From an uncultured Gemmatimonadales bacterium (lineage in GTDB: Bacteria; Gemmatimonadota; Gemmatimonadetes; Gemmatimonadales; GWC2-71-9), in NCBI GenBank assembly GCA_963828735.1, contig CAWHFW010000005.1:1152001-1216000 (forward strand): 64,000 nucleotides of DNA, in the 5' to 3' direction. Of this stretch, positions 5,294 through 41,402 are shown in pieces. Both the position numbers and the translations under genes were made by a program. Positions within the stretch are counted from its first letter, which is position 1, and every line of letters starts with the position of its first letter. The notes below the pieces were generated by a model. The model was not told where the DNA came from. It saw only the letters and a list, made by a program, of their open reading frames with translations, and made no database searches.

Positions 5294-5308
5294 CGTGGTA
5301 GTCTCCGG

Positions 5309-8151: not shown

Positions 8152-8221
8152 TGAGTCCCGTGAGATCCGGATATGAGAGTGGTCGGGAGTGCAAGCGGCT
8201 GAAACCCGCGGAGACGGTGGG

Positions 8222-12900: not shown

Positions 12901-15900
12901 AGCTGTCGGCGGCGAGATCCACGATGTAGCGGAAGACGTTCTCGTTTGAGCCCGTGAGGTCGAGACCGGTGTCGCCGTTCAGGTCCTCGGTGTCGAGGAC
13001 ACCGTTGCCGTTGGTGCAGCGGGAGCTCAGGTCGCCCCACGGGAAGACCGGCACTTCGCTGCTCAGGGCGCGGACGCAGAGCGGCAGGTCCTCGACCGGC
13101 GGGAGCCCGGCTTCTTGGATCGAATCGGGTCGGTCGCCCAGGATGCCGACGTCGTCGGTCTCGGCGTTGAAGATCCCGACCTCGGTGCGTTCGGTGTTCA
13201 GCGTCCCGAGGCCCACGTACTGCCGCCCGGTGTACAGTGTGTCCGCGCCGTTGGGGGTCAGGGAGTCGGGCGCCAGGGCGATGGCGTCCTCGCTCACGGT
13301 GCCCAGATCGATGACCAGCCTCATGCCGGCCGAGTCGGCGGGCTCGCCGGCAGGCTGGAACAGCCAGAACTCGAGGAAATCGTCGTTGCTGAGGTCGAGC
13401 CCGGTCGGGCTCAGCGACGTCACCATCGATCGCCACCGCGGCCGGAAGTCCCGGCGCGGCAGGGACCAGCGCGAGGCATTGTTCCGCTGCACGATGCCGC
13501 CGGCGGTGTCGGCATGCAGCGCCATGTACATGATGGTCTCGGGGTTGGCGCCGGCGCCCGCGACCCTGATCAACGTGTCGATGTCCTGCGGCCGGAGCTC
13601 CAGGGGGGTGCCGTTGGGTCCCGGAATCAGGTTCTGCCAGGTGAGGGCCACGGCGTCGGCCGGATCGAACCCGCCGGCGAACCCGATGTCCTCGAGGCCG
13701 TCGGGCTGTTGCGGGCGACTGCCGAACTCCCACTGCGTCTCGCCGAGGCTCACGTCGACGCCCGCATCGCCCTCGAATTCCTCGAGATACGCCTGTCCGG
13801 ACCGGTTGGGGTCCGGCTTGGTGAAGGCGAACTCGGCGTTCACGTCGAACAGCGAGGGCGCCGACGCTTCCTTGGTCACCAGCTTGTTCAGGAAGCTGTT
13901 GACCCACGTCGGCTTGAAGTGGAGCTCGGTGTTCACGCCGCCGATGAGGTTGGCCGACGCCTCGAACCCGAGCGCCGGGCGCGTGAACGCGCTCTGTTCC
14001 CGCTGGTACAGGCCGATCAGGTTGATGGCGCCGCGATCGCCGAGCGAATAGCGGGTGGCCATGCCGAGGATGCTCGTGGGCGCCACGGCGAACAGGCCCT
14101 GCTCCTCGAACCGAGCCGTCACCTGCGCCGACCCCGTGCCGAACAGCGCGTCGGGGTTGAGGAACGTCACCTGCCCGACGTCGTAGGAGATGGAGTAGTC
14201 CACCCCGCGCACCAGTTTCCGTCCGGCGACGTAGAGCTGCTCGCTGTTCTCGCGGAGCTGGAGCGCGTTCAGGGTGAGCGTCGAGCGGTCGCCGCCGCCG
14301 GTGGCGTTGTACTGGAGGCGCACGGCGAACTTGGCCGGCGGCCCCTGGGACAGGAGAAGAAAGAGCGGTGTTCGGTACAGCGAGTCGGACGCCTCGGCGG
14401 GTGTCAGGCGAGCGGGATCGGCGAACGGCTGGAGACTCGGGAACACGATGTACGATTCGCGAACGACCTGGGAGGCGTCCGTATCCTGCTGGCGCGGAAA
14501 GAGGCGGTTGGTGCGATCGAACACCGTCGCGTCGCTTGGCACCGCGAGGCCCAGCTGTTGCAAGTACGTTTCCGCGTTGCCGGCGAGCGGACGCTCGGAG
14601 CGGTTGAGCGTGATCCCCACCAGCAGCGAGCTAGGGTCGAGGTCGGCGCCGGCCACCCGGTACACCTGTCGCATCTCGTAGCGGAACGTCGGGAGGCTCG
14701 GCCCCTGCTGCGGCTGGACGATCAGCTCGAGCGTGTCCCGCGCCTGCGGGACCCCGGCGACGGTGACGGTGCCGCGATCGACTTCGGGGAAGGTGCCGAC
14801 GACGTTGTCCGCCGCCGTGCGATAGCTGACCGCGAGGTAGTCGTTCACGTCGAGCTTGGTGCCCAGGACGATCCAGAGGCCCGACTCGTCCAGGAAGTAG
14901 TCGGTGCCCTGGATGAGCAGCTCCCAGCGGACGGGGCCAAACTGCTGGGGGCTGTCGCCTCGGCGGGCCAGCGCCGTTATGCCGCCCAGATTCGGGTTGA
15001 CCCCGCTCTTGCTGCTGGCGGCGCGGTAGCGGTAGATCCGCACCTGGCTCGGCCGGTAGGTGGGCGAGAGGGCATCCGGTGATAGCTTGAGGATGTCGAG
15101 CGCCGGGTAGCCCGGCAGGCTGTCCGGGTCGACGACCCAGAAGAAGCGGCCGCTCTCGAAGTCGAGGTCGCGCACCTGGCGGTCCTGCGCCTGACTCGTC
15201 GTCTGGCCGACCGTGTACGTCCGCTCGGAGACCACGCTTCCCTTCTGGGTGGCCGCGAGCGTCTGGAGCGTCACCGGTCCCACCTCGAAGGTGGCGTTCA
15301 CGCCGAAGTTGTTGGCGGGGACGGCGGCGGTGATGAAGCGCGACGGGGGCGGCTGGAAGACCACGGTGCCGATGTCCACGCGCCGGACGATCTCGTCCTC
15401 CAGACCCTCGTAGTAGATCTGGACGTTGTTGTTGCTGGAGTAATCCCGCTCGGTATCGAAGTCCACATTCACGTGGACCCGTTGGCCGAGCAGGCCGCTC
15501 GAACGGATATTCACCTGGTTGTCGAGGCTCGGGGCCTTGAAGCCGCCGCGACAGCCGGAATTCGGGTCGAGCGACAGCGCCGGGGTACACCGTTCCTCGC
15601 GAACGCGGTCGGTCCGGATCTCGAGTCGGGCCTGGCCGTCCAGGGTCAAGTCGGCGTATTTCGTGGGGAGCCCGAGGACGTTCTTTCGGGCCGGCTGCCC
15701 TTCCTCCTCCCCGGCGAGCGGCAGATCGGCGATCCCGTAGAGATTTCGGAGCCGGAAGGCGAGCTGGCGATCGGCACGATCGGCGGCCACCGTGGCGGCG
15801 ACCACGCTGTCGAAAGCCTCCAGCCGGAGGCCGGGCGCCAGACGAGGGCCACCCATCCAGGAGGCTCGGAGCGCGGCTGGTTGCTGGAGAGCGAGCGGGG

Positions 15901-16006
15901 GTTGCTCGAAGCGGACCCGGACACCGAGCGTCGTCGTATCCGCTTGCGCGCAGAGCACCCGAGGCAGCCAGATCAGGCAGCCCAGGGCGACCAGGAAACG
16001 AGTCAC
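9932..16006 (-). CDS. sprA: SprA/Sov-like outer-membrane translocon (T9SS)
   Basis: 2024 aa with signal peptide. Segments NVDFDTER, YEGLEDEIVR, ENSEQLYV.G.KL.RGVDY.I.Y..GQV, YLEEFEG, LDTEDLNGD, WKLYRIPIR, QINEKSL and LWVDDIRL are SprA-family hallmarks; long C-terminal beta-strand region. Confidence 0.85.
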   Translation of the reverse strand: MTRFLVALGCLIWLPRVLCAQADTTTLGVRVRFEQPPLALQQPAALRASWMGGPRLAPGLRLEAFDSVVAATVAADRADRQLAFRLRNLYGIADLPLAGEEEGQPARKNVLGLPTKYADLTLDGQARLEIRTDRVREERCTPALSLDPNSGCRGGFKAPSLDNQVNIRSSGLLGQRVHVNVDFDTERDYSSNNNVQIYYEGLEDEIVRRVDIGTVVFQPPPSRFITAAVPANNFGVNATFEVGPVTLQTLAATQKGSVVSERTYTVGQTTSQAQDRQVRDLDFESGRFFWVVDPDSLPGYPALDILKLSPDALSPTYRPSQVRIYRYRAASSKSGVNPNLGGITALARRGDSPQQFGPVRWELLIQGTDYFLDESGLWIVLGTKLDVNDYLAVSYRTAADNVVGTFPEVDRGTVTVAGVPQARDTLELIVQPQQGPSLPTFRYEMRQVYRVAGADLDPSSLLVGITLNRSERPLAGNAETYLQQLGLAVPSDATVFDRTNRLFPRQQDTDASQVVRESYIVFPSLQPFADPARLTPAEASDSLYRTPLFLLLSQGPPAKFAVRLQYNATGGGDRSTLTLNALQLRENSEQLYVAGRKLVRGVDYSISYDVGQVTFLNPDALFGTGSAQVTARFEEQGLFAVAPTSILGMATRYSLGDRGAINLIGLYQREQSAFTRPALGFEASANLIGGVNTELHFKPTWVNSFLNKLVTKEASAPSLFDVNAEFAFTKPDPNRSGQAYLEEFEGDAGVDVSLGETQWEFGSRPQQPDGLEDIGFAGGFDPADAVALTWQNLIPGPNGTPLELRPQDIDTLIRVAGAGANPETIMYMALHADTAGGIVQRNNASRWSLPRRDFRPRWRSMVTSLSPTGLDLSNDDFLEFWLFQPAGEPADSAGMRLVIDLGTVSEDAIALAPDSLTPNGADTLYTGRQYVGLGTLNTERTEVGIFNAETDDVGILGDRPDSIQEAGLPPVEDLPLCVRALSSEVPVFPWGDLSSRCTNGNGVLDTEDLNGDTGLDLTGSNENVFRYIVDLAADSFYVRNGVTTTDEQGHTATWKLYRIPIRRPSKTLNTPTLRLVQHLRLTVVAPPDPGQPDIVARFAMARLRFVGSPWVRRSDTPILGLTGATGEAHGEIVTSVVSTENQTDLGYESPPGVTDDVARRGGDQQSEGTQINEKSLRIIAQDLRLGERAEAYLRFPAGAQNLLTYRTLGVWMRGRGPGWNEGDLQAYLKLGSDNNNFYLYRAPARSDTWTPEVTIDLETLRRLRADVENRWLSGQPPSGAAECGTLDTGAYVACEGPYLVHVADPGVNPPNLAAVQEISAGIYRVGQTVTTEEAELWVDDIRLTDPVSQTGTAASVDARLVASDVAALSVAFIKQNGQFRQINQDPSYLGTDVLQMGGNLRLERFLPTNLGLAVPVTVAYARTATNPELLTGTDIRGDALSGLRKPDTRSGTVTMGIRRAIPGRTWLTKGLFDPLSAAASYTQGHAITELSEVQSNSYTMNVTYQVQSRRRGIHLGLGGIASVLPKFMREGEIGKSLERADLSVNPTRFRLASGLNRDESNSTAFRFPVARSDDDAFQPTLALNHLWRNSAGLTWQPLGMLNLSGDLASTRDLRVYPDSSPIGRLAYAERRFFLGIPVGVERDRTVATALALTPNLASWLRPRFITTSNFVLSRTLSSRDPVRADGDSGAFILPQTLNNARTNELGASVDFARALRLIAGDSSGIGKTMARVRPIDASTRLTRTSTYDLNAFDPSLRYQLALGGLDDFLVQEGEAARGVSETRTATVATGADLPYGVTFTISHALSRTTRLQRVGEAFIETETQQTEWPVGNVRWSRTFRGGPFTIVAVGTAFRRREGTSMQGNRGGAPALTSIKSSSVTPDVQLGFRNGLNVTLGLTTLGQDNLSNGNETQLQQNDVTGSLTYTIRLPRSVSRARKPVRSSLTYLQTKARTCIHQGDVGDCILISDVRRREVRGGVDTDLLQTLSGGLQVGYTLNDARHLSRRTSQLSIIASFQLSLFAGDYR

Positions 16007-27865: not shown

Positions 27866-27897
27866 ATGCCCCCCGCTGCGATCGCAGCGGGGGGCAT
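27866..27897. terminator. Bidirectional terminator (perfect 32-bp palindrome)
   Basis: ATGCCCCCCGCTGCGATCGCAGCGGGGGGCAT between convergent genes, with a T run following on the minus strand. Confidence 0.75.
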
Positions 27898-28043: not shown

Positions 28044-29414
28044 TTACTCAATTGTGCTTGGTGCGAGAATCAGCTTGATCGAGGTGGTAGCCCCGCCGTC
28101 GAAGTTCACCACCGCGATGAAGTAGGTGCCAGGCAGAAACTCCGCCGTGTCGCCTTCGTCGAAGGCGGTGGTGGCGGCTACAAGGGGCGCCGTGTTGCAG
28201 GCAGCGTCACCACAAACGATCAGGTCGAGATCGGCACCGCCATTGTCGGACGCCACACTCACGTTGATGGTATCCGTCGCGGCGACGGTGAACTTGTAGT
28301 ACTGTGCCCCAACACCGCCGTCACCGGTGATGTCGGCTCCAGTGAAGCTCGAGGAGTCGAACACCACGGTCGGGAAGGCTGACGGTGCGGTCACGGTGGG
28401 AGCGGTGTTTATATCGTCCGTGTTCGCGATCGGCGGAGCGACAGTACCCACGGTCATCGTATCCGTGACCGCGTTCGTGAGGTTCAGGGCAAACTGGTTG
28501 ATCGTGTCGATCACCAAGCCATTGACCAGGAGCAGCCCCGTGGCTCCCGGCGGCGGAATGAGCGTGGCGACGTTGGGAGTGGCGCCGACCAGCGTCACGG
28601 TGTCTGCCCCGATCTGGAACACGGCGGTAGCCGGATCGAACGTCGCTCCGTTGAAGGTGACCGTGACTGGCTCACCCAGGGCAGGCGTCAAGTTCGAGAC
28701 CGTGCCGTCGAACACGGTGATCGCCGGCGTGGTGAAACGAACGTCCGTCGACGGGGCGAATGTCACCCCGGGCGTGGCGTCCGAGACGACATCCGTGAGG
28801 ACGGCAGGAGCATTGAGGATGTTCGGCGGCGGCAGGAAGGTCAGGCTCTTGCCGTCAGCCGCCACGACCACATCCGCCGGCTGAGCGACGGCACCCGTGA
28901 AGGTCACCGTCGTGGTCGGCGAGAAGCTGACTCCGGCCGGCGCGGTGAGGGTGACGACCTCGTTCAGCACCGGGGTCACGTTGCTCGCTTGCACCGCGAG
29001 GACGTTCTGAGCAATGACCTGGACGGGGATCGTGACCGTGGTCTCACCCGTGCCGAGCTTGAAGGACGTGGCGCCGTAGTTGTCCGCCGTGACGACGAAG
29101 CGCATCGTCGGCGCCTCGGCGGCCACGCTGAGCTGGCTGTCGTTCACGAACACCGGCAGGAAGGTCGAGTCGCGGCGGACGGTGATGCCCGGGCCGACCT
29201 CGGTCGCCTCGTACGCGGACGAGATCGCGTTGCCCTGATCGTCGACCGCGGTGACTTCCACGGTCTTCGACTCACCCAGCTGCAGGAACAGCTGCGACGG
29301 CGTGGCTTCGATACGCGAGATCCCGGCCCGGAGCGGCTCGGTGGGATCGCCGCTGCATCCGAGCGCCAGCAGAAGGGCGAACAAAGGAACCATACCAGAT
29401 GTCAAGCGATTCAT
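28044..29414 (-). CDS. Surface lipoprotein with tandem Ig-like domains and a C-terminal PPC-like beta domain
   Basis: Lipobox LALG-C, GAGGTG SD; Thr/Val/Ala-rich repeats (SN.TP.L.E.VT twice); C-terminus QYYKFTV...DLDL...PGTYFIAV. Confidence 0.7.
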   Translation of the reverse strand: MNRLTSGMVPLFALLLALGCSGDPTEPLRAGISRIEATPSQLFLQLGESKTVEVTAVDDQGNAISSAYEATEVGPGITVRRDSTFLPVFVNDSQLSVAAEAPTMRFVVTADNYGATSFKLGTGETTVTIPVQVIAQNVLAVQASNVTPVLNEVVTLTAPAGVSFSPTTTVTFTGAVAQPADVVVAADGKSLTFLPPPNILNAPAVLTDVVSDATPGVTFAPSTDVRFTTPAITVFDGTVSNLTPALGEPVTVTFNGATFDPATAVFQIGADTVTLVGATPNVATLIPPPGATGLLLVNGLVIDTINQFALNLTNAVTDTMTVGTVAPPIANTDDINTAPTVTAPSAFPTVVFDSSSFTGADITGDGGVGAQYYKFTVAATDTINVSVASDNGGADLDLIVCGDAACNTAPLVAATTAFDEGDTAEFLPGTYFIAVVNFDGGATTSIKLILAPSTIE

Positions 29415-29458
29415 ACTTCGCACCTCGTTCAAAGGCCATGTAGAAGAAGCAGCAACAC

Positions 29459-30904
29459 TCAGAACTTGTCCGGTACCCCGTTCACCTTGAAGTCCACGCC
29501 GAGGAAGCGACCGATGTCATCGACCGCGTCCTCCTTGTGCAGCAGTTCCTGCCAGTTCGGCTGTCCAGGCTCCTTCAGGTCGTTGGAGTAGACCAGCTGG
29601 TAGTTGCCCAGGCCGTTGGCCCGATCGATGAAGATGTAGTACCGGTCTTTCCCGGTCCGGAACCGCCACACCTCGTACGGCGGTGAGCGACCGGCCTGCG
29701 GCCGCTGCAGCACATCGTCGGGCGCGCCGTTCCGGACGAAGATCCGGCCGCGGTCCGTCTTCCATCCGGGCATCGCCGCCCGGCCCTTCTCGCCGTAGGT
29801 CCGCTCCGCGTAGGCCACCGCGTCGTAGAACCGCTGGCGGGTCTCGTTGTCCGGCGTGCTGGGCACCAAGTCGCGCTTCTGCCAGAACTCGACCAGGAAG
29901 CGCCGCTTGGCGCGCAGGCTCAGGTCCTTCGTGTACTTGGACAGCTCGCCCGACTGGGCGACGAGCATCAGCGGTTCCTTCGCGGTGTCGAGCTCCTTCT
30001 CGTTCATCGCCTCGAAATAGCCTTCGTCGGTGCCCTTGGCCGCTTCGCGCCGCGCGACGTCCTTCTCCAGTGTCTCGTCGAGACCGGCCATGTTGAACAC
30101 CGCCGACCGTTCCACCGTCTTGCCGCCGATATCGAGCGCGGCATTCATCGTGTACTGGCCCGGCGGGAGGCCGCTCAGGTCGAGCTGACCCTTCAGGACC
30201 CCACCGCCCGCGGGCACCGTCACCGGCGTCGCCGGCGTCGTCGTGAGCGCCTTGCCGGCCGAATCCACCACCTTGATGGTGAGCGTGCCGTTCGTCTCCT
30301 GAGCCGAATAGGCCTCGAGGAGGTAGTACGCGGTGGCGCGGAGCGGTGTCAGCTCCAGTCGTGCCGCCGCCGTCACCAGCATGCGTCCCCACCGGAGCTC
30401 GGCCGGCAGCGGGACGGTGTCGCCGGCGGTGACGGGCCGGATCTGCGGCGACAGCAGCAGGTCCGACGCCGGGGGTGCGCTCCGATAGCCCTCGAGCTGG
30501 ACCGTCGATCCCACCTTGTGGCCCGACACGGAGTCCTCGACGTTCACCTCGAGGCTGTACCTGCCGGGCGCCAGACTGAACCGCACCATCTCGACCCCGA
30601 ACGCCGCTGGGCCTCGAACGTCGGCCGGGGCGTGGTTCTGCCAGGACTGCTGCAGCAGGGTGAGCCCCGTGGAGTCGGTCACCTTCACCCCGACCCGGTA
30701 ACTCAGGGATCCCGTGTTGCCCTCCCCCGTCGGCTCGAGTACGGCGTAGGGGACCTGGACGAACGCGTTCACTTCCGTACGGCCCTGCTCCGCGCGATAC
30801 GAGCGCACCGCGCGGAGGATGAGGCCGGCGTCGGGCGCCGGACCCTGCCCCGGACGCGCGAACGACGCCATGGCCGCGAGGGCGACCAACCGGACTGCGA
30901 TCAT
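29459..30904 (-). CDS. GWxTD domain-containing protein
   Basis: FW.KRD..P.T..NE, GWKTDRGRIFVRNGAPD, YEVW.F; signal peptide and Ig-like N-terminal domains. Confidence 0.9.
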   Translation of the reverse strand: MIAVRLVALAAMASFARPGQGPAPDAGLILRAVRSYRAEQGRTEVNAFVQVPYAVLEPTGEGNTGSLSYRVGVKVTDSTGLTLLQQSWQNHAPADVRGPAAFGVEMVRFSLAPGRYSLEVNVEDSVSGHKVGSTVQLEGYRSAPPASDLLLSPQIRPVTAGDTVPLPAELRWGRMLVTAAARLELTPLRATAYYLLEAYSAQETNGTLTIKVVDSAGKALTTTPATPVTVPAGGGVLKGQLDLSGLPPGQYTMNAALDIGGKTVERSAVFNMAGLDETLEKDVARREAAKGTDEGYFEAMNEKELDTAKEPLMLVAQSGELSKYTKDLSLRAKRRFLVEFWQKRDLVPSTPDNETRQRFYDAVAYAERTYGEKGRAAMPGWKTDRGRIFVRNGAPDDVLQRPQAGRSPPYEVWRFRTGKDRYYIFIDRANGLGNYQLVYSNDLKEPGQPNWQELLHKEDAVDDIGRFLGVDFKVNGVPDKF

Positions 30905-30945
30905 AGATCAGCTACCGCCACTTCAGAGCGAACAGGCAGGCCCGC

Positions 30946-32088
30946 CTACCACCCCAGCGAGAAGCTGAAGAAGTTGGTCGGGCCGAGGATACCGAGATAC
31001 TTGTAGGCGTAGTCCAGGCTCAGGCCGAACCCGTTCCCGTTCCCGCCGTACTGCAGGCCGCCGCCGAACGCGAGACCCTGGAGGCTCTCCTCGTCGCTGA
31101 GGGCGGTGGTCGACGTGGTCGGGGTGAGGTTGTTCGCGCCGGTATAGCTGTAGCTGCCCCGGAGCGCGAAGCCGAAGTTCGAGCCGCCGAGCTTCTGCGA
31201 CTGCCACTCGCTGCCGAAGGCGAAGCCAGGCTTGTTGTTGTTCGGCTGGTTGAAGTCGCCGAGCATCGTGAGCCGGTTGCTCTCGCCCGTGATGATGTCG
31301 TAGGCCAGCCCGACCCGGAACGTCGTGGGGAGCGGGAAGTCCTTGGTCAGCAGGTTGGCCTGCTGCGGCAGCGTCGGAACGGGATCCTCACCCGGCAGCG
31401 GGTCGCGCTGCACGTCGCCGGCGAGGCCGGTGCCCGAGTAGGTCAGGTTCGAGCCCAGGTTCGCGAGCACGAACGAGAACTTCACGGGGTGGTTGTTCAG
31501 CGACGCGTGGAAGTTGGTGCCGAAGTCCACGGCGAACGCGTTGCCGCTCACCGTGCCGAGCCGGTCATCGACGTACTTGGCGGTGATACCCGCCGAGAAC
31601 CGGTCGGAGAAGTTCTGGGCGAACGTCGCGCCCACGAACGTCTGGTTGACGGAGTACGTGCCGCCCGTGCCGTCCGGCTGGTCCTCGGTGTAGATCGGCT
31701 GGTCCTTGAACCCGAAGGTTCCGAGCTGGAAGCCGAGCGTCCGGGAGCCGCCGGAGAACGGGAAGGCCACGCCGGCCCACGAGTACCGGGTGTTGGCGAC
31801 GTAGTCGTAGGTTCCCAGCATTACGCCCGGCCGGTCCAGCATGGCCACGCCCGCGGGATTGTAGTAGAGCGCGCTGACGTCGGTAGCGATCGCGGCGAAC
31901 GATCCGCCGAGTGCCGTGCCCCGGGCGCCCGCGCCGAGAAGGAGGAACTCCGCCGCGGTCGTGCCGTAGGCGGTGTTGTCTTCCTGCCCGACTGGCTGTC
32001 CCGTCTCGTTCTGCGCGGCCGCGACGGCCGGAAACGCATTCAGCAGTCCGAAGGCAAGCAGCCACCCAGGTGCGGTGAGCTTCGTCAT
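30946..32088 (-). CDS. PorV/PorQ family outer-membrane beta-barrel
   Basis: GTTAAEFL.LG.GARG.ALG, D.SALYYNPAG, FAVDFG, LPTTFRVG, DYAY; C-terminal aromatic residue (FSLGW). Confidence 0.88.
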   Translation of the reverse strand: MTKLTAPGWLLAFGLLNAFPAVAAAQNETGQPVGQEDNTAYGTTAAEFLLLGAGARGTALGGSFAAIATDVSALYYNPAGVAMLDRPGVMLGTYDYVANTRYSWAGVAFPFSGGSRTLGFQLGTFGFKDQPIYTEDQPDGTGGTYSVNQTFVGATFAQNFSDRFSAGITAKYVDDRLGTVSGNAFAVDFGTNFHASLNNHPVKFSFVLANLGSNLTYSGTGLAGDVQRDPLPGEDPVPTLPQQANLLTKDFPLPTTFRVGLAYDIITGESNRLTMLGDFNQPNNNKPGFAFGSEWQSQKLGGSNFGFALRGSYSYTGANNLTPTTSTTALSDEESLQGLAFGGGLQYGGNGNGFGLSLDYAYKYLGILGPTNFFSFSLGW

Positions 32089-32109
32089 GTTGTCATTCTC
32101 CTGAAGGTT

Positions 32110-32133
32110 GGGGCGGGTCCGAGGACCCGCCCC
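32110..32133 (-). other. Intra-operon stem-loop
   Basis: GGGGCGGGTCC-ga-GGACCCGCCCC with no U tract, between the cargo gene and the PorV-like gene. Confidence 0.5.
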
Positions 32134-32145
32134 CGTCGGGGCCCC

Positions 32146-35100
32146 TTACTGGGCGAAGTTCACGACCGTGAAGCGGCCCACTCTCCGGGCGCTACCGGCT
32201 TCGATGTGATAGAAGTACACACCGCTTGCGACCACCTGGTTGTTGCGGTTCCTGAGGTCCCAGTTGACCTCGCTCCCCTGCGAGTTGCTGGTTGAGCTGT
32301 ACTGGCCGCCATGGTGCTCGAGCATACGCACCAGGACGCCGCTCGCCGAGTAGATCCTGATGATCGCATCCTGCGGGAGCCCGACGAATTTCAATACCTT
32401 CTGATCGGTGCTCGACTCGAACGCGCTCTTCACGTAGTACGGGTCGGGCACGGTGTGCACGTGGCTGAGATCGTCATCCGTGGCTTCGGCAACGACGCTG
32501 CTCACGCCGAACTCGAGCGCCGCCGTGGCGCCGATGGCGGTGAAGGGACGGGTGCCTGCCGGGGTGAAGGTGAAGCTGCCAGGGGTGCCCAGGATCTCTC
32601 CGACGTACGACCGGAGTGCCCAGACCGTTCCCTGCGCCGGCAGGGCGGGCATGCTCATCACGAACTGGTCGCCCGCGAGGTAGAAAATGAACCCGCCATC
32701 GGCCGCTGGAGCGATCGTGGCCGCCTCGGCCAGCGAGGTCTTGAAGAACGCCACGCTCCCGAGCTGGGCGGTGTTGCTCAGCGCGACCGGCGTGCCGGCG
32801 CACTGGATGCGAACGGATGGCTCGGTGACGCCGCCACTCGCCCACGGCTCGACGCATGCCATGTCGGTCGCGGTGAGGACCGTCGGCCGCGCGTCCTGCA
32901 CGCTGTTGGCACCCGCGGCCGTGTTCAGGATGCCGAACCCGCCGCCCATGTAGGGCTGGAACGGCACGGGCACGTTGTGCGTGATGTCGATGACCGAGTC
33001 GACCAGGCCGCCGACGCCCCAGTACACGTTGAAGTCCGCGGCACGCCGAACGGTCGGCAGGACCCAGTCCATGTTGCGGTACTCACCATTCAGCTGGATG
33101 TACGGCAGGATCTGCTGAATCGTCGTGACGCCCGTGAGCTGGCCCGCGTTGTTGTAGTTCGTGACGTCGCACTCGGCCGGATTGTGCGGCGTTGCGCTGC
33201 CACCACCGGTGCTGAAGGCGGCCGGCAGACAGTTGCCGCCGTTCGGGTCGTCCTTCGTTTCGTTCGTGACGGGCGAAGGCCCGTCGAACCAGCGCGACCC
33301 GTTGTGGAAGCAGTCGGCGCCGGCGCCGAAGTCGCTGAACCGGCATCCCATGCCCCACCCGCCCAACTCGCTCCCGGTGGGCGCCTTGACGGTGCCCTGG
33401 CCCTGGAGCTTGAACGGCGGGCTGCCCTCGAACCTGGCAGCGGTCGCCGGATCGACGGTCAGCGCTTCGAAGAAGACGCTGGTCGACTCGATCGTCCCTG
33501 CCGCGGCTGCGCTGCCCGCGTACAGAGTCTGGGAGAACGGGATGTTCGTCTTGAAGCTGTCCACGCCGTTGTTCAGGGTCACGTAATACTGCGTCGGGAT
33601 CGTGGGACCGACCGCAGCGCCGTAGAGCGCCGTCGCGTCGTACTGGCCCATATGCAGACTGTCGAGCCGCATCGTGAGCGCGCCGCTCTGGGTCGGCTGG
33701 ATGACCGAGGAAGCGAACTCGCCGACGAAGCCCACCACCCCACCATCAGCCGCCTGGAACGGGCCGCTGAACTTGCCGGTGGTGGCGTCGATCGATGGCG
33801 CCGAGCTGATGGCGGTGTCCATGGCCACCCCGCGCCCGATCACGTGGGTCACGAGGTTGCTCGCGATCTGCTGGTTCGACTCGGCCGGCACCGGGGTCAC
33901 GGCCTTCGTGGCCCGGTTGGACTCGAGGCTCGAGAGACCCGAGACCAGGGAGTTCACGTCGAACGCGACCACCGAGTAGAAGTACCGCAGGCTGTTCCGG
34001 ACGTTCCGGTCGATGAAGATGAACGGCACGCCGGTGTTGGCCAGGTCGGTCGAGACGCCCTGCGCGATGCGCCCCTTCGAGACGTCCGCGAACGCGGTGT
34101 CCAGGGTACCCGGCAGGATCTGCGCCTTGCCGTCCGCGAGCAGCACGCGGTTGCCCGGGGTGACCTGGGTGATGGTGCCGACAATATCGATGTCCGCGTT
34201 GCCGACGAACGGGCTGCCCGGCGCCGGCGTGGAGTACACGATCCCCGCGCAGTCGAGCGTGACACCCAGCTCGGGCGCGCAGGTCGCCGTCGGATTGACC
34301 AGGGCACGGAAGTCCTTGAAGATGCCCTTCCCGGTGGCCGGATCAGGCGCATAGTCGAATTGCGCGACCAGCTGCAGCTCGGTCGGGCTGCTGGTCCGGC
34401 CGCGGTAGATCCGGTAGCCCTCGACGTCGTTGCCGCGGAAGTTCGGGTCGTACAGCGGATTCGGGTTGCCGTCCTTCGTGGGCTCGCTGGCCACCTGGAA
34501 GAACGGATCAGGCGTCGTCTCCGTGGCCGAGGCGGCCCAGAGGACGGTGACCTGGTTGTTGCCCGGGACCAGGAAGAACTCGGGGCGCTCCGGCGCGAAC
34601 GGGAGCAGGAACTTCCCGTCGAACACCGCCTGCGCCACGGTGGCCTTGCCCAGCAGGGAGCCCGGCTGGGTCACGAACTCGGCCTGGCTGACCTTGGTGG
34701 GGTCGGTGTCGGTCGGGCCACCGTTGTTGAAGCCGATGTAGCCGGTCATCTGATCGATCTGGTTGACACCGGTCGCCATCCGGGCAGGATCCCCAAGAAT
34801 GGTCAGGTCGCCATTCGAGGTGGCGGGCTTCACGTCGCACGCGGCGCCGGGGCAGCCACCCGCCGAGACAGGCGCGGCGAAGATGTACGCCACCACGATC
34901 GTGCCCGAGCCGCCGGGCGCGAGGTTGAGCGGACCGGAGGACTCGAAGAACCGCATGTCCGCCGCGCTGCCGATGTTGACGAAGCAGATCTTGGAGACGA
35001 GCGGGTCGGCCAGCGAGCAGGCGCCGTCGGTCGGCAGCAGGCCGCCCGTGATGTACCGGTAGAGCTGCCTGTCGTCGTTCGGGTCCTGCAGCGAGCCGGA

Positions 35101-36231
35101 CGACCGGGAGAACGTGCCGAACAGCGACAGGCCGACCTCGTTGCCCAGACTATCCACGGGGCTGCGAAGGTACTTCACGCCCACGAAGCCCACGCCGTTG
35201 AAGAACGGCGCCGAGCCGAAGATGGCCGGGTCGAACGTCCAGCCGATGCTCCGGGCCGTCGCCTCGCTGAACGTGTGCTCGTAGGTGTAACCCATCGCGA
35301 ACGGCACGTTGACACTGGCGTAGTTCGCGTCGGCCTGGGCCACGTCCATGTCCGCCACGAACGCGGCGAACAAGTTGTTGATGGTGTAGCCGCCGGCCGG
35401 GAGGTTGATCCCGTACTTGGCGGTGTTGAGCGCCTGGAAGTCCGCGGCCTTCTGCAGCAGCACCTCGCGCATGGCCGGGCGGATCGCCGCGTAGTCGGCC
35501 GCGTTGGTGCTGGTGATGTTGTAGAAGGTGTAGACGAAGTAGATGATGTCCTGGTTGCCGCTGGGGAAGTTCCAGCCGAGCGCCCGGGTCTCGACCGCGA
35601 TGCCGAGCGGGTGGGCGCGGCTCTCGAGGCGGGCCGGATTGCCCTCCCAGCTCACGAACCAGAGGTCGCCCTGGGACGCGGCGATGCCACCCTGCAGCGC
35701 CGGGTCGAACAGGTCGCCCTGCGGGTCACTGCCCAGCGCCAGGTCGACACATGGCGTGGCCGTGGAGCCGACCGCGCACGGCACGCGCGCGACGTCGGGC
35801 CAGTTGGCCGCGTCGGTCGCGTCGGCGGATGCGAAGATCGGCCGGACCTCTTCGCCGTTGTCGCCGCCGGCCGTGTTGTTGAAGAACGCGCCCGCGGTGT
35901 CACCCGCGAACCCGTTCACCGACTTGTCGCCGGGTTCGATGACGCCGGCGATGTTGATGCCGGAGCCGAAGACGTATTGGTCAGCGGTGCCGCGGGGCCA
36001 GATGCCGCCGCCGACCGTCGACGAGCCCGTGGCGCAGATCTGGCCGGACGAGAACACCCGGCACTGCACCCGGTTCGGCGTGAAGACGTTCTGGGCACTC
36101 GAAAAGAGCCGGAACCCGCCGGGCTTCGAGGGCCGCGGCTTGGCGACCGCCGTCGAGGCGACCGTGGCGCCCAGCGCCAGGGCCGCGACGACTGCCCGCA
36201 AGACTACGCGCTGACAACGCGAGAAACGCAT
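32146..36231 (-). CDS. Large secreted protein with split FN3-like domain and T9SS-type C-terminal domain
   Basis: Signal peptide; VTVLW...VEGYRIYRG...D.NV.N..RYFYSVVAFD; C-terminus VHTVPDPY...F.GLP...IRIYS.SG.LVR...WDLRN...VASGVYFYHIE. Confidence 0.8.
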   Translation of the reverse strand: MRFSRCQRVVLRAVVAALALGATVASTAVAKPRPSKPGGFRLFSSAQNVFTPNRVQCRVFSSGQICATGSSTVGGGIWPRGTADQYVFGSGINIAGVIEPGDKSVNGFAGDTAGAFFNNTAGGDNGEEVRPIFASADATDAANWPDVARVPCAVGSTATPCVDLALGSDPQGDLFDPALQGGIAASQGDLWFVSWEGNPARLESRAHPLGIAVETRALGWNFPSGNQDIIYFVYTFYNITSTNAADYAAIRPAMREVLLQKAADFQALNTAKYGINLPAGGYTINNLFAAFVADMDVAQADANYASVNVPFAMGYTYEHTFSEATARSIGWTFDPAIFGSAPFFNGVGFVGVKYLRSPVDSLGNEVGLSLFGTFSRSSGSLQDPNDDRQLYRYITGGLLPTDGACSLADPLVSKICFVNIGSAADMRFFESSGPLNLAPGGSGTIVVAYIFAAPVSAGGCPGAACDVKPATSNGDLTILGDPARMATGVNQIDQMTGYIGFNNGGPTDTDPTKVSQAEFVTQPGSLLGKATVAQAVFDGKFLLPFAPERPEFFLVPGNNQVTVLWAASATETTPDPFFQVASEPTKDGNPNPLYDPNFRGNDVEGYRIYRGRTSSPTELQLVAQFDYAPDPATGKGIFKDFRALVNPTATCAPELGVTLDCAGIVYSTPAPGSPFVGNADIDIVGTITQVTPGNRVLLADGKAQILPGTLDTAFADVSKGRIAQGVSTDLANTGVPFIFIDRNVRNSLRYFYSVVAFDVNSLVSGLSSLESNRATKAVTPVPAESNQQIASNLVTHVIGRGVAMDTAISSAPSIDATTGKFSGPFQAADGGVVGFVGEFASSVIQPTQSGALTMRLDSLHMGQYDATALYGAAVGPTIPTQYYVTLNNGVDSFKTNIPFSQTLYAGSAAAAGTIESTSVFFEALTVDPATAARFEGSPPFKLQGQGTVKAPTGSELGGWGMGCRFSDFGAGADCFHNGSRWFDGPSPVTNETKDDPNGGNCLPAAFSTGGGSATPHNPAECDVTNYNNAGQLTGVTTIQQILPYIQLNGEYRNMDWVLPTVRRAADFNVYWGVGGLVDSVIDITHNVPVPFQPYMGGGFGILNTAAGANSVQDARPTVLTATDMACVEPWASGGVTEPSVRIQCAGTPVALSNTAQLGSVAFFKTSLAEAATIAPAADGGFIFYLAGDQFVMSMPALPAQGTVWALRSYVGEILGTPGSFTFTPAGTRPFTAIGATAALEFGVSSVVAEATDDDLSHVHTVPDPYYVKSAFESSTDQKVLKFVGLPQDAIIRIYSASGVLVRMLEHHGGQYSSTSNSQGSEVNWDLRNRNNQVVASGVYFYHIEAGSARRVGRFTVVNFAQ

Positions 36232-36320
36232 CCCGTCCTCCTTAGAGAGATACACAGCCCCCTCGCCTGCCGCGGGCCGGCCGAATCCGGCCGACCCGCA
36301 GCATGCTCGGGGTGTTTACA

Positions 36321-39300
36321 TCAGAAGTTGATCTCGAAGCCCAGGCGGGCCCGGCGCGGGGCGCCGTACTGCTCCTGCGTGCCGCGGCCGACGTCGTACA
36401 GCGCATTGATCGCGCTCGTCTGCTCCTCGAGCGTGTAGACGTGGTCGCCGTTGCCATAGCGCTCTTCGGCGCGGATCAGGTAGACACAGTTGGCGGCAGC
36501 CGGATCGTTCTTGCTGCTCACCCAGGTGTTGCAGCTCGCGCGCGGATCCGCCGCCCCACCGAAGGTGAGGTCGAGCGCTCCGTCGGGCCCGACCGCATTG
36601 TTGTTGTCGCGCTCGGAGGCCAGGTCGTCCAGATCGGCCTTCAGGTTCTCGGCGCGCTCGTTGTCGTTCCGCACGTCGCCGTTCACCGCGAAGACCTGGA
36701 GCACGTTCTTGAAGTTCAGCATGTTCCGGACGTCGAGATAGCCCGTCAGGTCCAGCTTACCCAGCGAGAAGCCCTTGGTGAACTTCGCGTTGAGCTCCTT
36801 GAGGGCCGGAAGCCGCTGCGTGTTGATGCCCTCGGGGAACAGGCGCACGCAGTTCTCGATGGACATGATGCTCTGCTCTTCGGCGCTCTCGCCGCACTTG
36901 GTGTACGCGGTGCCGCTGGTGTAGCGGAACGTCGCGAACACGCTGGTGTTCTGGAAGATCGTGCCGGAGACGGTGCCCTTGTTCCAGTCGTCCGGCATGG
37001 TGACCGAGAACGCGGTCGCCAGCGTGTGCGGCCGGCTGTTGTCGGTGGGCAGGATGCCCTGCGGCGGCGGCTGGGCGCCGTTGTTGCCACCGACCTGGTT
37101 CACGATGCGCGACCCGTAGTTCACGTAGGTGAACGGATCGGAACCGGTGTTCTTGGCCTGCTGGAACGAGTAGCTGAACGTGCCGTTGAAGTAGTTGCCG
37201 AAACGGCGGTCGAGGCGGACGTCGAGACCGCGGACGTTCCCGAAGTCCAGGTTCGTCAGGATGCGGAAGTCGTTGTCGCGCCTGAGGGCCGGGTCGTACA
37301 GGGTGACCAGGCGGGCCGCCGGATCGGACACGATGTCCTTGTTGTACGCCGCGACGTCGAGCACCATGTCGTCGCTGAACGCGTGCCGGATGCCGAACTC
37401 GAAGGTGATCGTCTTGCCGAAGTCGAGGTCCGACCCGAACACCTGGTTGGTGTTGGTGTTGCCCAGGTCGGTGTTGATGCCGCCGAGGAGCAGCGCGAAG
37501 TCAGGCGTCTGCACCTGGTGGGCGTACGACAGACGGAAGTTCGTCTTGTCGGTCACCGGGAACGACACCTGGACGTGCGGGCTCAGGTAGTCGTGGTGCT
37601 TGTCCTTCACGAAGATCGACGTCGGATTGGTCTGGTCGAACCCGGGCATGCTCGAGACGCGCGGGAACGCATAGGTGTTGCCCAGCGTGTCCGTCGCGAA
37701 CGGGCGGGAGGCACGGGTGTCGTAGTAGTCGTACCGCAGGCCGCCCACCACGACCACGTCACCCAGGTCGAGGCGGTCTTCCACGTAGCCGTTCCACCGG
37801 ATCGGCTTCTCGCGATACGCGTCCGAGAAGAACTTGTCCTGGAGGCGGAACGTGTAGTTGTCGATGTGGTACTGGGTGAACTCGGCGCCGATGTTGAGGC
37901 GGTTGTACCGGTCGGCCTGCCAGTCGAGCTTGGCCTTGCCGATGTACCGGTCTTCCTTGTACAGGCTGAGCCGGGTGGGGAAGCCGTTGCCGTTGGCCGG
38001 GCCGCCGCCCTCGCCGAAGGTCCAGGTGGCGCCGTCCAGCGTGTTGGCGAAGTTCTGGTACTGGCCGTACAGGCCGTAGGCGTTGTTCCGGGTCACATCG
38101 AGGATGTTGTAGATGCCGCCGTTGTTGGCGTCGAACGGCGTGATCCGGCCCTGGTTGACCCGGACGTTGTTGATCAGCTCGTCGGTGATCGGGAACTTGT
38201 CGAAATCGAACAGGAACTTCATCGGCGACATGATGAAGCCGCCGAACGGATCACGCGTGGAGAGATCGCTCTCGGTCGTGAGCGGGCTGTTGATCGTCCG
38301 GTCCTGCTGGTACGACAGCGCCACGTCGAGGGCCAGCGCCCGCTCGCTGCTCTTGCTCAGGTTCTGGGTCCAGTTCAGCGTCGCGAAGTAGTTCCGGTTG
38401 GAGAACCCGCGATCGGATGACGGGAGCGAGATGTTGTTGATGTACGAGATGATGAACGGGAAGGTGTGGCCCTGGTTCCGGCTGGTGGCCAGACTGAGCG
38501 AGAGTCGCGAGCCCGTGCCGTAGGTGTAGTTCAGCTTGCCCGACGCCGTGTAGAGCGTCGAGGCGGTCGCCGGAAGGCGGACGCCGTTGCAGTCCAGCCC
38601 GAAGTTGTTCCGGATCTGGTTGATGTACCCGGCGTCGGCGCCGTTCACGCCGTCGGCGCCCGCGTTCTGGAAGGCGTCGCACTTGCCGCGCGAGATCGCA
38701 TAGTTGTAGATCGGCACCTGGGTCGAGTCGGCGGTAGCCGATTCGTCTTCCGGGGTGGCCGGATCATCCAGCGCGCTGAGCTGAGTGATCGTCGTGTCGA
38801 TGCCCGCCGGCAGGAAGATCGGCACGTTCTCGCTGCCGAAGCCTTCCTCCGCGGCCTTGTGGCCCTCGAGCGTGCCGCTCAACGCGAAGGTGAGGCGACC
38901 CGCCAGCGGCCCGCTGAAGGCGCCTTCGAACCGGTTGAACCCGACCGAGTGGTTCACGCCGAACGGCTCGTCCGTCGAATAGGAGAACGACCCGTTGTAA
39001 TCGCTCCCGCCGGTCTTGGTGACGTAGTTGATGATACCGGACTTGGCGTTGCCGAACTCGGCGGAGGAGGAACCGGTGGTGACGGAGGCTTCTTCGAAGG
39101 CGTTGGTGCCGATCTCGAGCGCCGTGCCGGCGGAGCCCGCGAATCGATCGCCGCGGTAGCCGGCCTGGACCGGGACGCCGTCGACGTACGTGGCGGCTTC
39201 GTTGTTGCGGCCGCCGCGGATCGAGAGCTTCCCGGCGTTGTCCGCGGTGACGCCCGGCTGGAGCTTGAGGACGTCGTTGATCCGGTCGACCGGGAGCGCG

Positions 39301-39752
39301 TCGGCGAACTGGCCGTCTACCCGCTGCTTGGTCGTGACCTCGTCACGCGGCACGAGCGGCTGCGTCTCCGTGACGACGGTGATCTCCTGGATCTGCACGG
39401 CCGTCTGCTCGAGCTGCACGTCCACCGTGATCGTCTGGCCGGCGAGCACCTTCACGCCTTCGACCTGGGTCGACTTGTAGCCGATGAAGTTGGCGCGCAC
39501 CACCACCGATCCGGCGGGGATGTTGTTGATGAAGTAGTAGCCCTGCGGGTTGGTCAGGGCGTTGAACGCCGTCCCAACCACGAACACCTGGGCGTTGGCA
39601 ATGGGCGCGCCCGCTTGGTCGCGCACCCTGCCTTCGATCTTACCAGTCGAGCCTTGGGCGAGGAGCGAGCTTGCTCCCAGGCCCAGCGCGACTGCCGCGC
39701 ACGCGATGACCCGCGCAACGCGTACGAAGGCGCTGACACGGCAATGCTTCAT
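36321..39752 (-). CDS. TonB-dependent receptor with N-terminal carboxypeptidase-regulatory-like domain
   Basis: GKIEGRVRD..G.P, plug motif L.IRGGR..E...YVDGVPV, LSPHVQVSFP, C-terminal RARLGFEINF; GGAGG SD before ATG 39752. Confidence 0.92.
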   Translation of the reverse strand: MKHCRVSAFVRVARVIACAAVALGLGASSLLAQGSTGKIEGRVRDQAGAPIANAQVFVVGTAFNALTNPQGYYFINNIPAGSVVVRANFIGYKSTQVEGVKVLAGQTITVDVQLEQTAVQIQEITVVTETQPLVPRDEVTTKQRVDGQFADALPVDRINDVLKLQPGVTADNAGKLSIRGGRNNEAATYVDGVPVQAGYRGDRFAGSAGTALEIGTNAFEEASVTTGSSSAEFGNAKSGIINYVTKTGGSDYNGSFSYSTDEPFGVNHSVGFNRFEGAFSGPLAGRLTFALSGTLEGHKAAEEGFGSENVPIFLPAGIDTTITQLSALDDPATPEDESATADSTQVPIYNYAISRGKCDAFQNAGADGVNGADAGYINQIRNNFGLDCNGVRLPATASTLYTASGKLNYTYGTGSRLSLSLATSRNQGHTFPFIISYINNISLPSSDRGFSNRNYFATLNWTQNLSKSSERALALDVALSYQQDRTINSPLTTESDLSTRDPFGGFIMSPMKFLFDFDKFPITDELINNVRVNQGRITPFDANNGGIYNILDVTRNNAYGLYGQYQNFANTLDGATWTFGEGGGPANGNGFPTRLSLYKEDRYIGKAKLDWQADRYNRLNIGAEFTQYHIDNYTFRLQDKFFSDAYREKPIRWNGYVEDRLDLGDVVVVGGLRYDYYDTRASRPFATDTLGNTYAFPRVSSMPGFDQTNPTSIFVKDKHHDYLSPHVQVSFPVTDKTNFRLSYAHQVQTPDFALLLGGINTDLGNTNTNQVFGSDLDFGKTITFEFGIRHAFSDDMVLDVAAYNKDIVSDPAARLVTLYDPALRRDNDFRILTNLDFGNVRGLDVRLDRRFGNYFNGTFSYSFQQAKNTGSDPFTYVNYGSRIVNQVGGNNGAQPPPQGILPTDNSRPHTLATAFSVTMPDDWNKGTVSGTIFQNTSVFATFRYTSGTAYTKCGESAEEQSIMSIENCVRLFPEGINTQRLPALKELNAKFTKGFSLGKLDLTGYLDVRNMLNFKNVLQVFAVNGDVRNDNERAENLKADLDDLASERDNNNAVGPDGALDLTFGGAADPRASCNTWVSSKNDPAAANCVYLIRAEERYGNGDHVYTLEEQTSAINALYDVGRGTQEQYGAPRRARLGFEINF

Positions 39753-39941
39753 GGATACGTCCTCCAAAGGCGTGAACCTGCACGTACGACCGACCGTGAG
39801 CGGGGAGCGCACGCCTCCCCATGGCTCTGGGCCTGCTTCGAGATGCGGCCTGCTGTGGGAGTACGTCCTACGTTGAGAAGAGGGGGCGCAATGTCGGTTC
39901 CGACATCGCGTGCGACAACCGCGGCCCGGCCGTCGCAGCCT

Positions 39942-39970
39942 AATATGAAGCCCGTAAAATTTCGTGTCAA
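39942..39970 (-). promoter_or_regulatory. Sigma70 promoter of the TBDR operon
   Basis: Minus strand TTGACA, 17 nt, CATATT; implies a leader of about 180 nt. Confidence 0.65.
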
Positions 39971-40232: not shown

Positions 40233-41402
40233 CTAGGCCGGTGCGAGGATCAGCTCGGCCTGCGGCTCGCGCGGAGTGACCTCCGGACCCGACCCACCCC
40301 AGTGCATGTTGACCTCGCTCCGTACGCCGAATTCGCCAGGGAGGTATACCCCCGGCTCCACCGAGAACCCGATGCCGGGAATCAGCCGGCGGTCGTCGTG
40401 GGTCTCGTAGTCGTCCAGATGCGGTCCCGAGCCGTGCAGGTCCCGGTCGATCGAGTGGCCGGTGCGATGCACGAACCGCTCCCCGAGCCCCGCCGCCTCG
40501 ATGACCCCGCGCGCGGCCCGGTCCGCCTCGAAGCCCGCGATCGGCCGCCCCTCCGCCACCGCGGTCCGGACCAGCGCCACCGCCGCCTCCCGCGCCGAGC
40601 GCACCACCTCCCACACCCGGGCGACGCGCTCGGGCGGGCGCTCGCCGGCGAAGCCCATCCAGGTCTGGTCCGCGAAGACCGTGGTCCGGCTCCGGCCGGC
40701 CCACAGGTCGAGCAGCACCACGTCACCCGCGCGAAGCGTGGCGTCCCGGCCGGGCTGCGGCTCGTAGTGGGGGTTGGCGGAGTTGGGACCGAACCCGACG
40801 ATCGGCAGGGTGTCGAAGACGAGCCCTCTGGCCTCCACCGCCGCCACGACCCGCGCCTGGAGCGCGGTCTCGGTGAGGCCCCTGCCCGCCTCGCGAACGG
40901 CCCGCGCGAGCGCGGCGCGGGCGACGTCCGCCAGCACCTCCGCGGCGAACCGGTGGTCCGCCGCCTCCGCCGCCGTCCATCCCGACGCGAACCGGCTGAC
41001 CAGCGGCGCCGAGGGAACCACCGTGCCCCCCAGCCGACGCACCAGCTCCACCACGCCGCTCGGCACGCGATCGAGGTACGGCACGGCGTCGTCCGGGAAC
41101 ACCTCCATCGCCAGGCGCTTGCCCGCCACGACCGCCCCCAGGGCCGCGTGCAGCTCCTCCCATCGAGCATACGGCACGACCCGCCCCGGGAATCGTTCCA
41201 CCGGCGCGAGCTCGATCCGGTGGGCCACCGCCACCGGCTCGCCCTCCGCCGGCAGCAGGACGAACAGCCGACGGGTGTTGAGTCCCTCGAGCTCGAGGAT
41301 GCGGGTCGCGACCGGATTGAGCCCGTGGAAGGCGTACAGGAGCCAGCCGTCCGCCCCGGCCGCCGCGAGCTCCTCTCGCAGCGCGTCGCGGTCGGGGATC
41401 AC
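40233..41402 (-). CDS. M24 family (Xaa-Pro) aminopeptidase
   Basis: NSANPHY, LLDLWA, ADQTW, HRTGHSI, FSVEPGVY, GVRSE; GTG start overlapping the upstream stop. Confidence 0.9.
   Translation of the reverse strand: MIPDRDALREELAAAGADGWLLYAFHGLNPVATRILELEGLNTRRLFVLLPAEGEPVAVAHRIELAPVERFPGRVVPYARWEELHAALGAVVAGKRLAMEVFPDDAVPYLDRVPSGVVELVRRLGGTVVPSAPLVSRFASGWTAAEAADHRFAAEVLADVARAALARAVREAGRGLTETALQARVVAAVEARGLVFDTLPIVGFGPNSANPHYEPQPGRDATLRAGDVVLLDLWAGRSRTTVFADQTWMGFAGERPPERVARVWEVVRSAREAAVALVRTAVAEGRPIAGFEADRAARGVIEAAGLGERFVHRTGHSIDRDLHGSGPHLDDYETHDDRRLIPGIGFSVEPGVYLPGEFGVRSEVNMHWGGSGPEVTPREPQAELILAPA

Follow-up and report, generated by a model that had tools for sequence, protein, structure and literature searches.

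Several described envelope systems resemble parts of the gene cluster that is the subject of this report, a set of five genes in a 64,000-nucleotide stretch of DNA from an uncultured Gemmatimonadales bacterium (GenBank assembly GCA_963828735.1, contig CAWHFW010000005.1, positions 1,152,001 to 1,216,000; hereafter the window, from a source genome that is 97.5% complete). The SusC/SusD (RagA/RagB) systems of the Bacteroidota place the gene of a lipid-anchored partner, SusD, directly behind that of a TonB-dependent receptor (TBDR). The attachment complex of Porphyromonas gingivalis includes PorZ-PorQ and PorU-PorV, in which a protein with an uncleaved C-terminal domain (CTD) sits on a barrel of the PorV/PorQ family; PorU and PorZ retain their tails after export (PMC11285876). 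In SprB-SprF, a type B cargo of the T9SS (type IX secretion system) is encoded beside its own carrier barrel of the PorP/SprF type, and such cargo remains bound to its carrier (PMC9143113, PMC12635249). PorF (PG0534) of P. gingivalis is a TBDR-like barrel linked to type IX secretion (PMC5445135, PMC12704123).

The cluster has at its core the genes of a TBDR, of a large secreted protein with a T9SS-type tail (the cargo), and of a PorV-family barrel. It is real and conserved; its components each belong to a kind already known, and the combination is undescribed in the searchable literature, where searches, from which subscription journals largely fell outside coverage, found no description of the TBDR-cargo-PorV triplet and no use of the term "GWxTD," the family name of the fourth gene product. 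We favor the reading that the triplet is a SusD-free uptake unit in which cargo held by PorV captures substrate for the TBDR. We put the probability of this at about 0.55, and the functional assignment is based on gene context together with fold. The parts that carry the argument are as follows, in coordinates of the window.

36321..39752, minus strand: TBDR of 1143 amino acids, with signal peptide, CarboxypepD_reg extension, plug, and putative barrel with terminal Phe
32146..36231, minus strand: cargo of an unnamed family, 1361 amino acids, with signal peptide, mostly β, with a T9SS-type tail
34603..36105, minus strand: N-terminal cargo domain, spanning approximately residues 43-543, a galactose-mutarotase-like β-supersandwich with insertions
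32149..32484, minus strand: CTD of the cargo, PorU/PorZ-like by profile matches
30946..32088, minus strand: PorV/PorQ-family barrel of 380 amino acids (PorV_fam, NF033709)

The likeness to SusC/SusD lies in a partner gene directly behind the TBDR, in the occurrence of several copies, and in catabolic neighbors in some lineages, whereas the partner here is a T9SS-type secreted β protein rather than a lipid-anchored SusD, and the TBDR falls far below the SusC cut-off (TIGR04056, 27.7 bits against 368). An earlier, preliminary description of this DNA had noted the lack of SusD, and there is indeed none in the operon; PF07980, which also matches in the control genome, finds two true SusD genes elsewhere in the source genome, apart from the triplet. 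With PorZ-PorQ and PorU-PorV the cluster would share a surface-held CTD protein with uncleaved tail on a PorV/PorQ-family barrel, a likeness suggested here by the tail profile; unlike in those pairs, the cargo body is unrelated (a supersandwich), its gene lies behind a TBDR, no sortase was found in the genome, and the PorV and PorQ equivalog scores stay below their cut-offs. As in SprB-SprF, the cargo gene stands beside that of its own carrier, but the carrier is of the PorV family, the tail is nearer to type A/PorZ, and no gliding track was found. PorF, compared by description only, shares the connection between a TBDR-like barrel and type IX secretion; the available portions of PMC5445135 and PMC12704123 describe no gene triplet for it.

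Conservation of the gene order

Gene order was surveyed in loci retrieved through the cargo, and the counts include only loci with enough flanking sequence. Of 53 loci, which are kin and selected by their cargo, 50 have records labeled Gemmatimonadales or Gemmatimonadota. Across the 53 loci, a TBDR stands directly upstream of the cargo in 49/50 and PorV downstream in 39/39, with GWxTD in 37/37 and the lipoprotein in 30/36. The triplet is also borne by plasmid pRMAR01 of Rhodothermus marinus DSM 4252 (RMAR_RS14120/14115/14110), where it is flanked by genes for an FG-GAP protein on one side and for a peptidoglycan-recognition protein on the other. The Rhodothermus cargo, used as query, retrieved 48 metagenome loci, in which 35 of 39 cargo genes have a TBDR upstream and 39 of 44 have PorV downstream. 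In a second phylum (that of genome G121), 150 places were listed, from which 20 high-scoring and 10 lower-scoring loci were fetched; all 20 high-scoring loci read TBDR-cargo-PorV. Homology among the cargos of these lineages extends through most of each protein, a call that rests on motifs shared along the length instead of on hhalign, which was used in global mode and may inflate probabilities. The conservation of TBDR-cargo-PorV, which the preliminary description had proposed to check, thus extends across at least three lineages, and this recurrence is a first ground for the uptake reading.

Two of the 10 lower-scoring loci (L154 and L160) have the order TBDR-cargo-PorV-cargo-PorV; in them a joint duplication has copied the end of the cargo along with PorV (87-88% DNA identity), the PorV proteins being identical within each locus. 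Adjacency of TBDR and cargo persists where PorV is missing, in L063, L064, and a second pair of the source genome (C5:785734-792949, L162), of which both genes are frameshifted many times; this pair is either a decayed copy or the result of assembly errors. Uptake is also favored because one genome (G001) carries several copies with different cargos (L065-L068), and because of the genes that surround the distant loci. Among 49 neighbor proteins, hand-picked from clusters, were GH43, α-galactosidase, glucoamylase, a sugar transporter, three peptidoglycan amidases, M16 and M28 peptidases, and nucleoside hydrolases, as well as products of unrelated housekeeping genes. ExbD and TonB genes stand directly upstream of the TBDR-cargo pair of L064, and the source genome itself has two ExbB/TolQ loci with ExbD genes; both support the same reading.

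A second variant in the Gemmatimonadetes (L065-L067, L069) consists of a TBDR, a cargo of ~1380-1400 amino acids with a different N terminus and the same type of tail, and PorV, often followed by a small outer-membrane barrel and a lipoprotein, with no GWxTD.

The cargo protein and its tail

The AlphaFold2 model of cargo residues 31-1230 (pLDDT 88.7, pTM 0.81) is mostly β. In a fold search, the N-terminal domain found its best match in 9ju0 (Z 19.0, rmsd 3.2, 252 aligned residues, 8% identity), followed by the N-terminal domains of GH15, GH94, GH65, and GH116 (identities of 6-11%). This first domain resembles the β-supersandwich with galactose mutarotase fold that begins those enzymes; unlike them, the cargo has no following (α/α)6 barrel, there being no run of 12 long helices within residues 31-1230, and its matches to the enzymes span the non-catalytic sandwich only. 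Such a carbohydrate-enzyme-type fold, shorn of the catalytic barrel, is a further reason for the uptake reading. The fold search barely probed residues beyond about 545, and the part after the supersandwich may, to judge by motif, be fibronectin-III-like. The family is unnamed and comprises at least 869 proteins at E 1e-5. A search of the ESM Atlas returned only unnamed or GWxTD clusters.

The C terminus had been described as a T9SS-type CTD. Against the standard model, TIGR04183, the cargo reaches 16 bits (cut-off 23), with its frameshifted paralogue at 22.6-23 bits. Relationship to known tails speaks for the description, in that the tail family profile matches only PorU/PorZ in the PDB (6za2, 5m11; PorU E 4.9e-4, PorZ E 1.2e-3), and the cargo CTD is itself matched by the PorZ model (E 2.4e-6) and the PorU model (E 6.2e-5). 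Against CHU_C it scores 14 bits (cut-off 27), and the cargo body has no sequence match to PorZ or PorU beyond the tail. Retention of the cargo on PorV is suggested because the tail profile matches only PorU and PorZ, whose tails stay in place, and because no PorU was found. A near-invariant Lys lies near the C terminus of type A cargo (PMC10994853); at this position, assigned by eye, the window cargo and its close relatives have Arg, and R. marinus and several other tails have Lys.

The PorV-family barrel

The barrel is PorV-like, as had been proposed: it scores 139.8 bits against PorV_fam NF033709 (cut-off 90), and its family profile matches only PorV (6h3i, E 1.3e-14) in the PDB. Scores against the equivalog models lie below cut-off (PorV 53.2/250 bits, PorQ 63.6/220 bits). 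BamG, which is FadL-like (PMC12611786), was considered as an identity for the barrel because the PorV family model also matches in Bacteroides thetaiotaomicron, and was set aside on the ground that PorV alone was matched in the PDB.

The operon barrel is the only PorV-family gene found in the genome: the NCBI model gives a single match, and three custom profiles each give a single clear one. A second PorV, hidden or frameshifted, was found neither by tblastn nor at the two sites that hold solo PorVs in relatives. The preliminary description had given the cargo "its own PorV paralogue"; what it has is the sole family gene found, not an extra copy. In a quick tree, one branch divides operon-type from solo PorVs, with an approximate likelihood-ratio support (SH-aLRT) of 88, under the 95 mark, and long branches, so that no clade is claimed. 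A complex prediction of PorV, CTD, and GWxTD with the CTD as partner gave 0.88, against 0.01 and 0.00 with the partner replaced and 0.85 with GWxTD replaced; its verdict was "no answer," and it is counted neither way.

In other Gemmatimonadetes (L070, L072, L073, L074, L080) a PorV-family gene stands solo at a constant position between genes that we take, partly from motifs and partly from matches, to be era and prfB-lysS; it has been lost from the source genome. Another solo type lies near dnaE/accA behind a gene for a protein of 570-675 amino acids (L075, L076), and here the source genome keeps the flanking genes, without the barrel gene.

Type IX secretion components

The dependence on SprA that had been assumed for the cargo presupposes a SprA, and the window does hold a gene for one, 12 kb from the operon on its downstream side.

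9932..16006, minus strand: SprA/Sov translocon of 2024 amino acids (497 bits, cut-off 200), outside the operon, the presumed export channel

A downstream sprA, at a distance of 12-20 kb, likewise accompanies the operon in at least seven relatives from the same family. Across 121 genomes of the class, profile matches were obtained for the cargo in 45, SprA in 83, the PorV family in 108, and GWxTD in 38, and comparison of the tables showed that all 45 cargo-positive genomes are SprA-positive, an association on which the uptake reading also draws. In the second phylum, the tail type and SprA occur together in 41/41 genomes. The presence of SprA outside the Bacteroidota is not itself new, since published work states that a T9SS may be present in Gemmatimonadetes (PMC11285876) and calls SprA specific to the Fibrobacteres-Chlorobi-Bacteroidetes (FCB) group (PMC12611786).

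The remainder of the machinery is harder to find. The cargo's own tail is the sole match in the genome to the PorU sortase model (24.3/420 bits, with no control above the cut-off). Searches made without a positive control, which may miss divergent homologues, found no GldL, GldM, or GldN in the genome and a weak match to the GldK model (95.9/350 bits); likewise, GldM was found in 0/121 genomes of the class, GldN in 0/121, and GldL in 1/121, under the cut-off, and GldN in 0/41 genomes of the second phylum. McBride and Zhu (2013) may already have reported motor genes to be missing in some lineages.

A search of all C-terminal ends found three CTD-bearing genes in the genome, those of the cargo, its frameshifted paralogue, and a 150-amino-acid tail-only protein. 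This count is limited by detection, and further T9SS substrates are likely to have gone unrecognized, because 37 of the 83 SprA-positive genomes escape the tail profile. The 150-residue protein, a signal peptide and CTD only, is encoded between selB and clpB (C2:156637-157089; L161:6638-7090, minus strand) and is possibly a T9SS accessory or plug; weak CTD matches were seen in frames of 136-181 amino acids in six other genomes of the class. The strand of sprA also carries, directly downstream of it (window 4091-8881, minus), comEA and genes that we take from their sequence to be PilC/PilT/PilB-like.

The TonB-dependent receptor

The identification of the receptor made earlier is borne out by the plug, PF07715, which scores 38 bits (cut-off 23.9) and is present in 36/36 aligned relatives, and by the N-terminal CarboxypepD_reg extension, which also scores above its cut-off. 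The barrel family PF00593 matches 16/36 of the aligned relatives, with no match in the window TBDR itself. When the family profile was compared with solved TBDRs, transporters of iron, heme, and pyrroloquinoline quinone ranked before RagA, mostly via the plug; a ranking of sequence profiles such as this does not identify the substrate. Residues 123-129 fit a TonB-box consensus and are a candidate TonB-box-like segment.

Accessory genes and operon signals

Two further genes and two predicted regulatory sites complete the operon.

29459..30904, minus strand: GWxTD protein of 481 amino acids, two Ig-like sandwiches followed by a helical and α/β GWxTD part
28044..29414, minus strand: lipoprotein of 456 amino acids, Cys20, β-rich, with a weak PPC domain at the end
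39942..39970, minus strand: predicted σ70-type promoter-like site (TTGACA-17-CATATT), 190 nucleotides 5' of the TBDR start
27866..27897, minus strand: predicted terminator-like hairpin with a 14-pair stem (11 G-C), separating the lipoprotein gene from a convergent ABC transporter

Five co-oriented genes with short gaps had been described, and all five minus-strand open reading frames were confirmed, in the order TBDR, cargo, PorV-like barrel, GWxTD, lipoprotein, with successive gaps of 89, 57, 41, and 44 nucleotides. The promoter proposed for them is present as a promoter-like site with 10/12 consensus matches, two such sites being found where 0.7 ± 0.7 were expected. The "strong terminator" is sustained as a hairpin; terminator-like sites taken together, however, are no commoner than in shuffled sequence (6 found against 6.9). 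Small portions of the window sequence were contained in 22 soil or rhizosphere metatranscriptome runs. In the four runs that were mapped, all as contigs, coverage was low and flat across the operon and its flanks, which demonstrates neither transcription nor a single transcript; one contig of 312 nucleotides bridges the gap between cargo and PorV. Upstream of the operon, and co-oriented with it, is an M24 Xaa-Pro peptidase-like gene (window 40233-41438, minus strand), and many relatives have a gene of similar size at the same place.

The GWxTD protein scores above cut-off against both TIGR04514 (79.2 bits, cut-off 28) and PF20094 (34.4 bits, cut-off 26.9), in keeping with its first assignment, and has no sequence match in the PDB. 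In a fold search with its structure model (pLDDT 89.3), only the Ig domains were matched, the pair showing a generic likeness to that of the biofilm protein RbmA (rmsd about 10); none of the matches listed covered the GWxTD core, a result that does not in itself establish a new fold. For the lipoprotein, no NCBIfam family was matched, and its PPC domain (PF04151) scores 23.6 bits, below the cut-off of 25.9. Both proteins had been counted as parts of the system. They lie outside its cross-phylum core, which we restrict to the three genes TBDR-cargo-PorV because neither GWxTD nor lipoprotein is matched in loci L083-L160; to judge from these matches, the two are lineage-specific additions of the Gemmatimonadota. 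Within the class, GWxTD directly follows PorV in 26 of the 38 genomes positive for its profile, the remaining 12 having it on other or short contigs.

Three more GWxTD-like genes occur in the source genome (C5:1544107, C2:470686, C4:164523), one encoding a lipoprotein and two encoding proteins with long helical N-terminal parts. A 274-amino-acid fragment of an operon-type GWxTD gene (G031:C5:377720-378463) occurs in a genome where neither SprA nor cargo was matched and is possibly a remnant of a lost system.

Proposed mode of operation

Signal peptides and gene order suggest that the TBDR, cargo, and PorV would be co-produced and cross the inner membrane by Sec. The cargo would then pass through SprA, its CTD being caught by the operon PorV, as family membership and the mechanism in Bacteroidota would lead one to expect. 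With no PorU sortase found in the genome, the tail is likely to stay uncut, and the cargo may be kept on PorV at the surface much as PorZ and PorU are on their barrels. In the last and weakest step, the supersandwich and further β domains would bind a glycan or polymer fragment and hand it to the TBDR, with import presumably powered by TonB-ExbBD. GWxTD tracks PorV; our guess is that it probably serves in the periplasm, as a partner or as a helper in assembly. The preliminary description had likewise envisaged a protein held at the surface as part of an uptake or adhesion machine; SprA, the gene order, the PorU/PorZ-like tail, the co-duplication of cargo and PorV, and the carbohydrate-type fold support that idea in part, and the dedicated paralogue drops out, as do GWxTD and the lipoprotein as members of the cross-phylum core.

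Several observations weigh against the uptake reading. Contact between cargo and TBDR, with the cargo as a "lid," is a proposal drawn from gene order and fold, and sharing a supersandwich fold shows no function. No cargo follows a related TBDR found elsewhere in the source genome (C2:859240, 237 bits); conversely, L062 and an extra cargo in L061 have no TBDR. The 10 lower-scoring loci of the second phylum are mostly arrays of cargo paralogues, in which a TBDR lies upstream in 2/21 and PorV downstream in 4/24. The Gemmatimonadales operon occupies a fixed chromosomal spot amid housekeeping genes and has no hydrolase cluster, unlike a typical utilization locus. Finally, the cargo would have to leave SprA with no Gld motor found.

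Alternative explanations

The operon might instead be a housekeeping module of the T9SS, comparable with PorF and PorZ-PorQ, the cargo binding a surface glycan or glycolipid and the TBDR recycling or supplying glycans for envelope biogenesis and cargo attachment. The status of PorF as a TBDR-like component of the T9SS (PMC5445135, PMC12704123), the PorZ/PorU-like tail, the occurrence of the operon mostly as a single copy at a fixed site, with sprA 12-20 kb away in several members of the family, and the sole PorV would all suit such a role. Nevertheless, we consider it unlikely: 38 of the 83 SprA-positive genomes have no cargo match, which implies that SprA does not need the module, no PorU sortase was found for it to serve, and genomes elsewhere carry several divergent copies and varied catabolic neighbors.

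About as doubtful is the view of the cargo as a surface adhesin or matrix protein on PorV, as type B cargo is on PorP/SprF, the TBDR being co-expressed and acting alone or as a sensor. Dedicated carriers that anchor type B substrates are known (PMC9143113, PMC12635249). In the second phylum, groups of two to four cargo paralogues (850-940 amino acids) stand in tandem with neither TBDR nor PorV (L151-L159) and are possibly a pool of variable surface proteins. Locus L121 has three cargos ahead of one PorV, and the likeness of the GWxTD Ig pair to RbmA, generic as it is, points the same way. Against this, the adjacency of TBDR and cargo is kept across phyla, even where PorV is missing, and would be hard to explain without a functional tie.

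Less probable still is that the TBDR is an energy coupler, a pull from TonB-ExbBD extracting PorV-cargo from SprA in place of a GldLM motor; no TBDR is known to extract cargo from a translocon. Release of carrier and substrate from SprA in Flavobacterium requires the GldLM energy chain (PMC10994853), and GldM, GldN, and GldL score above cut-off in 0/121 genomes of the class, against 83/121 for SprA (second phylum, GldN 0/41 against SprA 41/41), with only the cargo, its broken paralogue, and the tail-only protein found to bear a CTD in the genome; yet the searches for the motor lacked a positive control and might overlook divergent homologues, 38 SprA-positive genomes have no cargo and 37/83 no tail-profile match, and multiple copies with catabolic neighbors suit transport better. 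Its extension, that SprA outside the Bacteroidota would do without GldKLMN, the TBDR gripping the cargo or its PorV carrier, and that extracted cargo, PorV, and TBDR would stay together at the surface as an ancestral TonB-driven type IX secretion, seems equally remote, and there is as little reason to expect its corollary, that the whole SprA-PorV machine of the genome would serve one substrate family.

Implications

The presence of SprA and PorV with no detectable motor raises the question of how type IX export is energized outside the Bacteroidota. Both this and the question of uptake are approachable because R. marinus DSM 4252, a cultured organism, carries the triplet. Should the SusD-free uptake reading be true, a function would be named for a large unnamed family, and uptake loci would have a genomic marker where SusD-based annotation fails. 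Abundant and poorly cultured lineages of the FCB group would then possess a second design for capture at the cell surface, one in which parts of type IX secretion replace the SusD lid.

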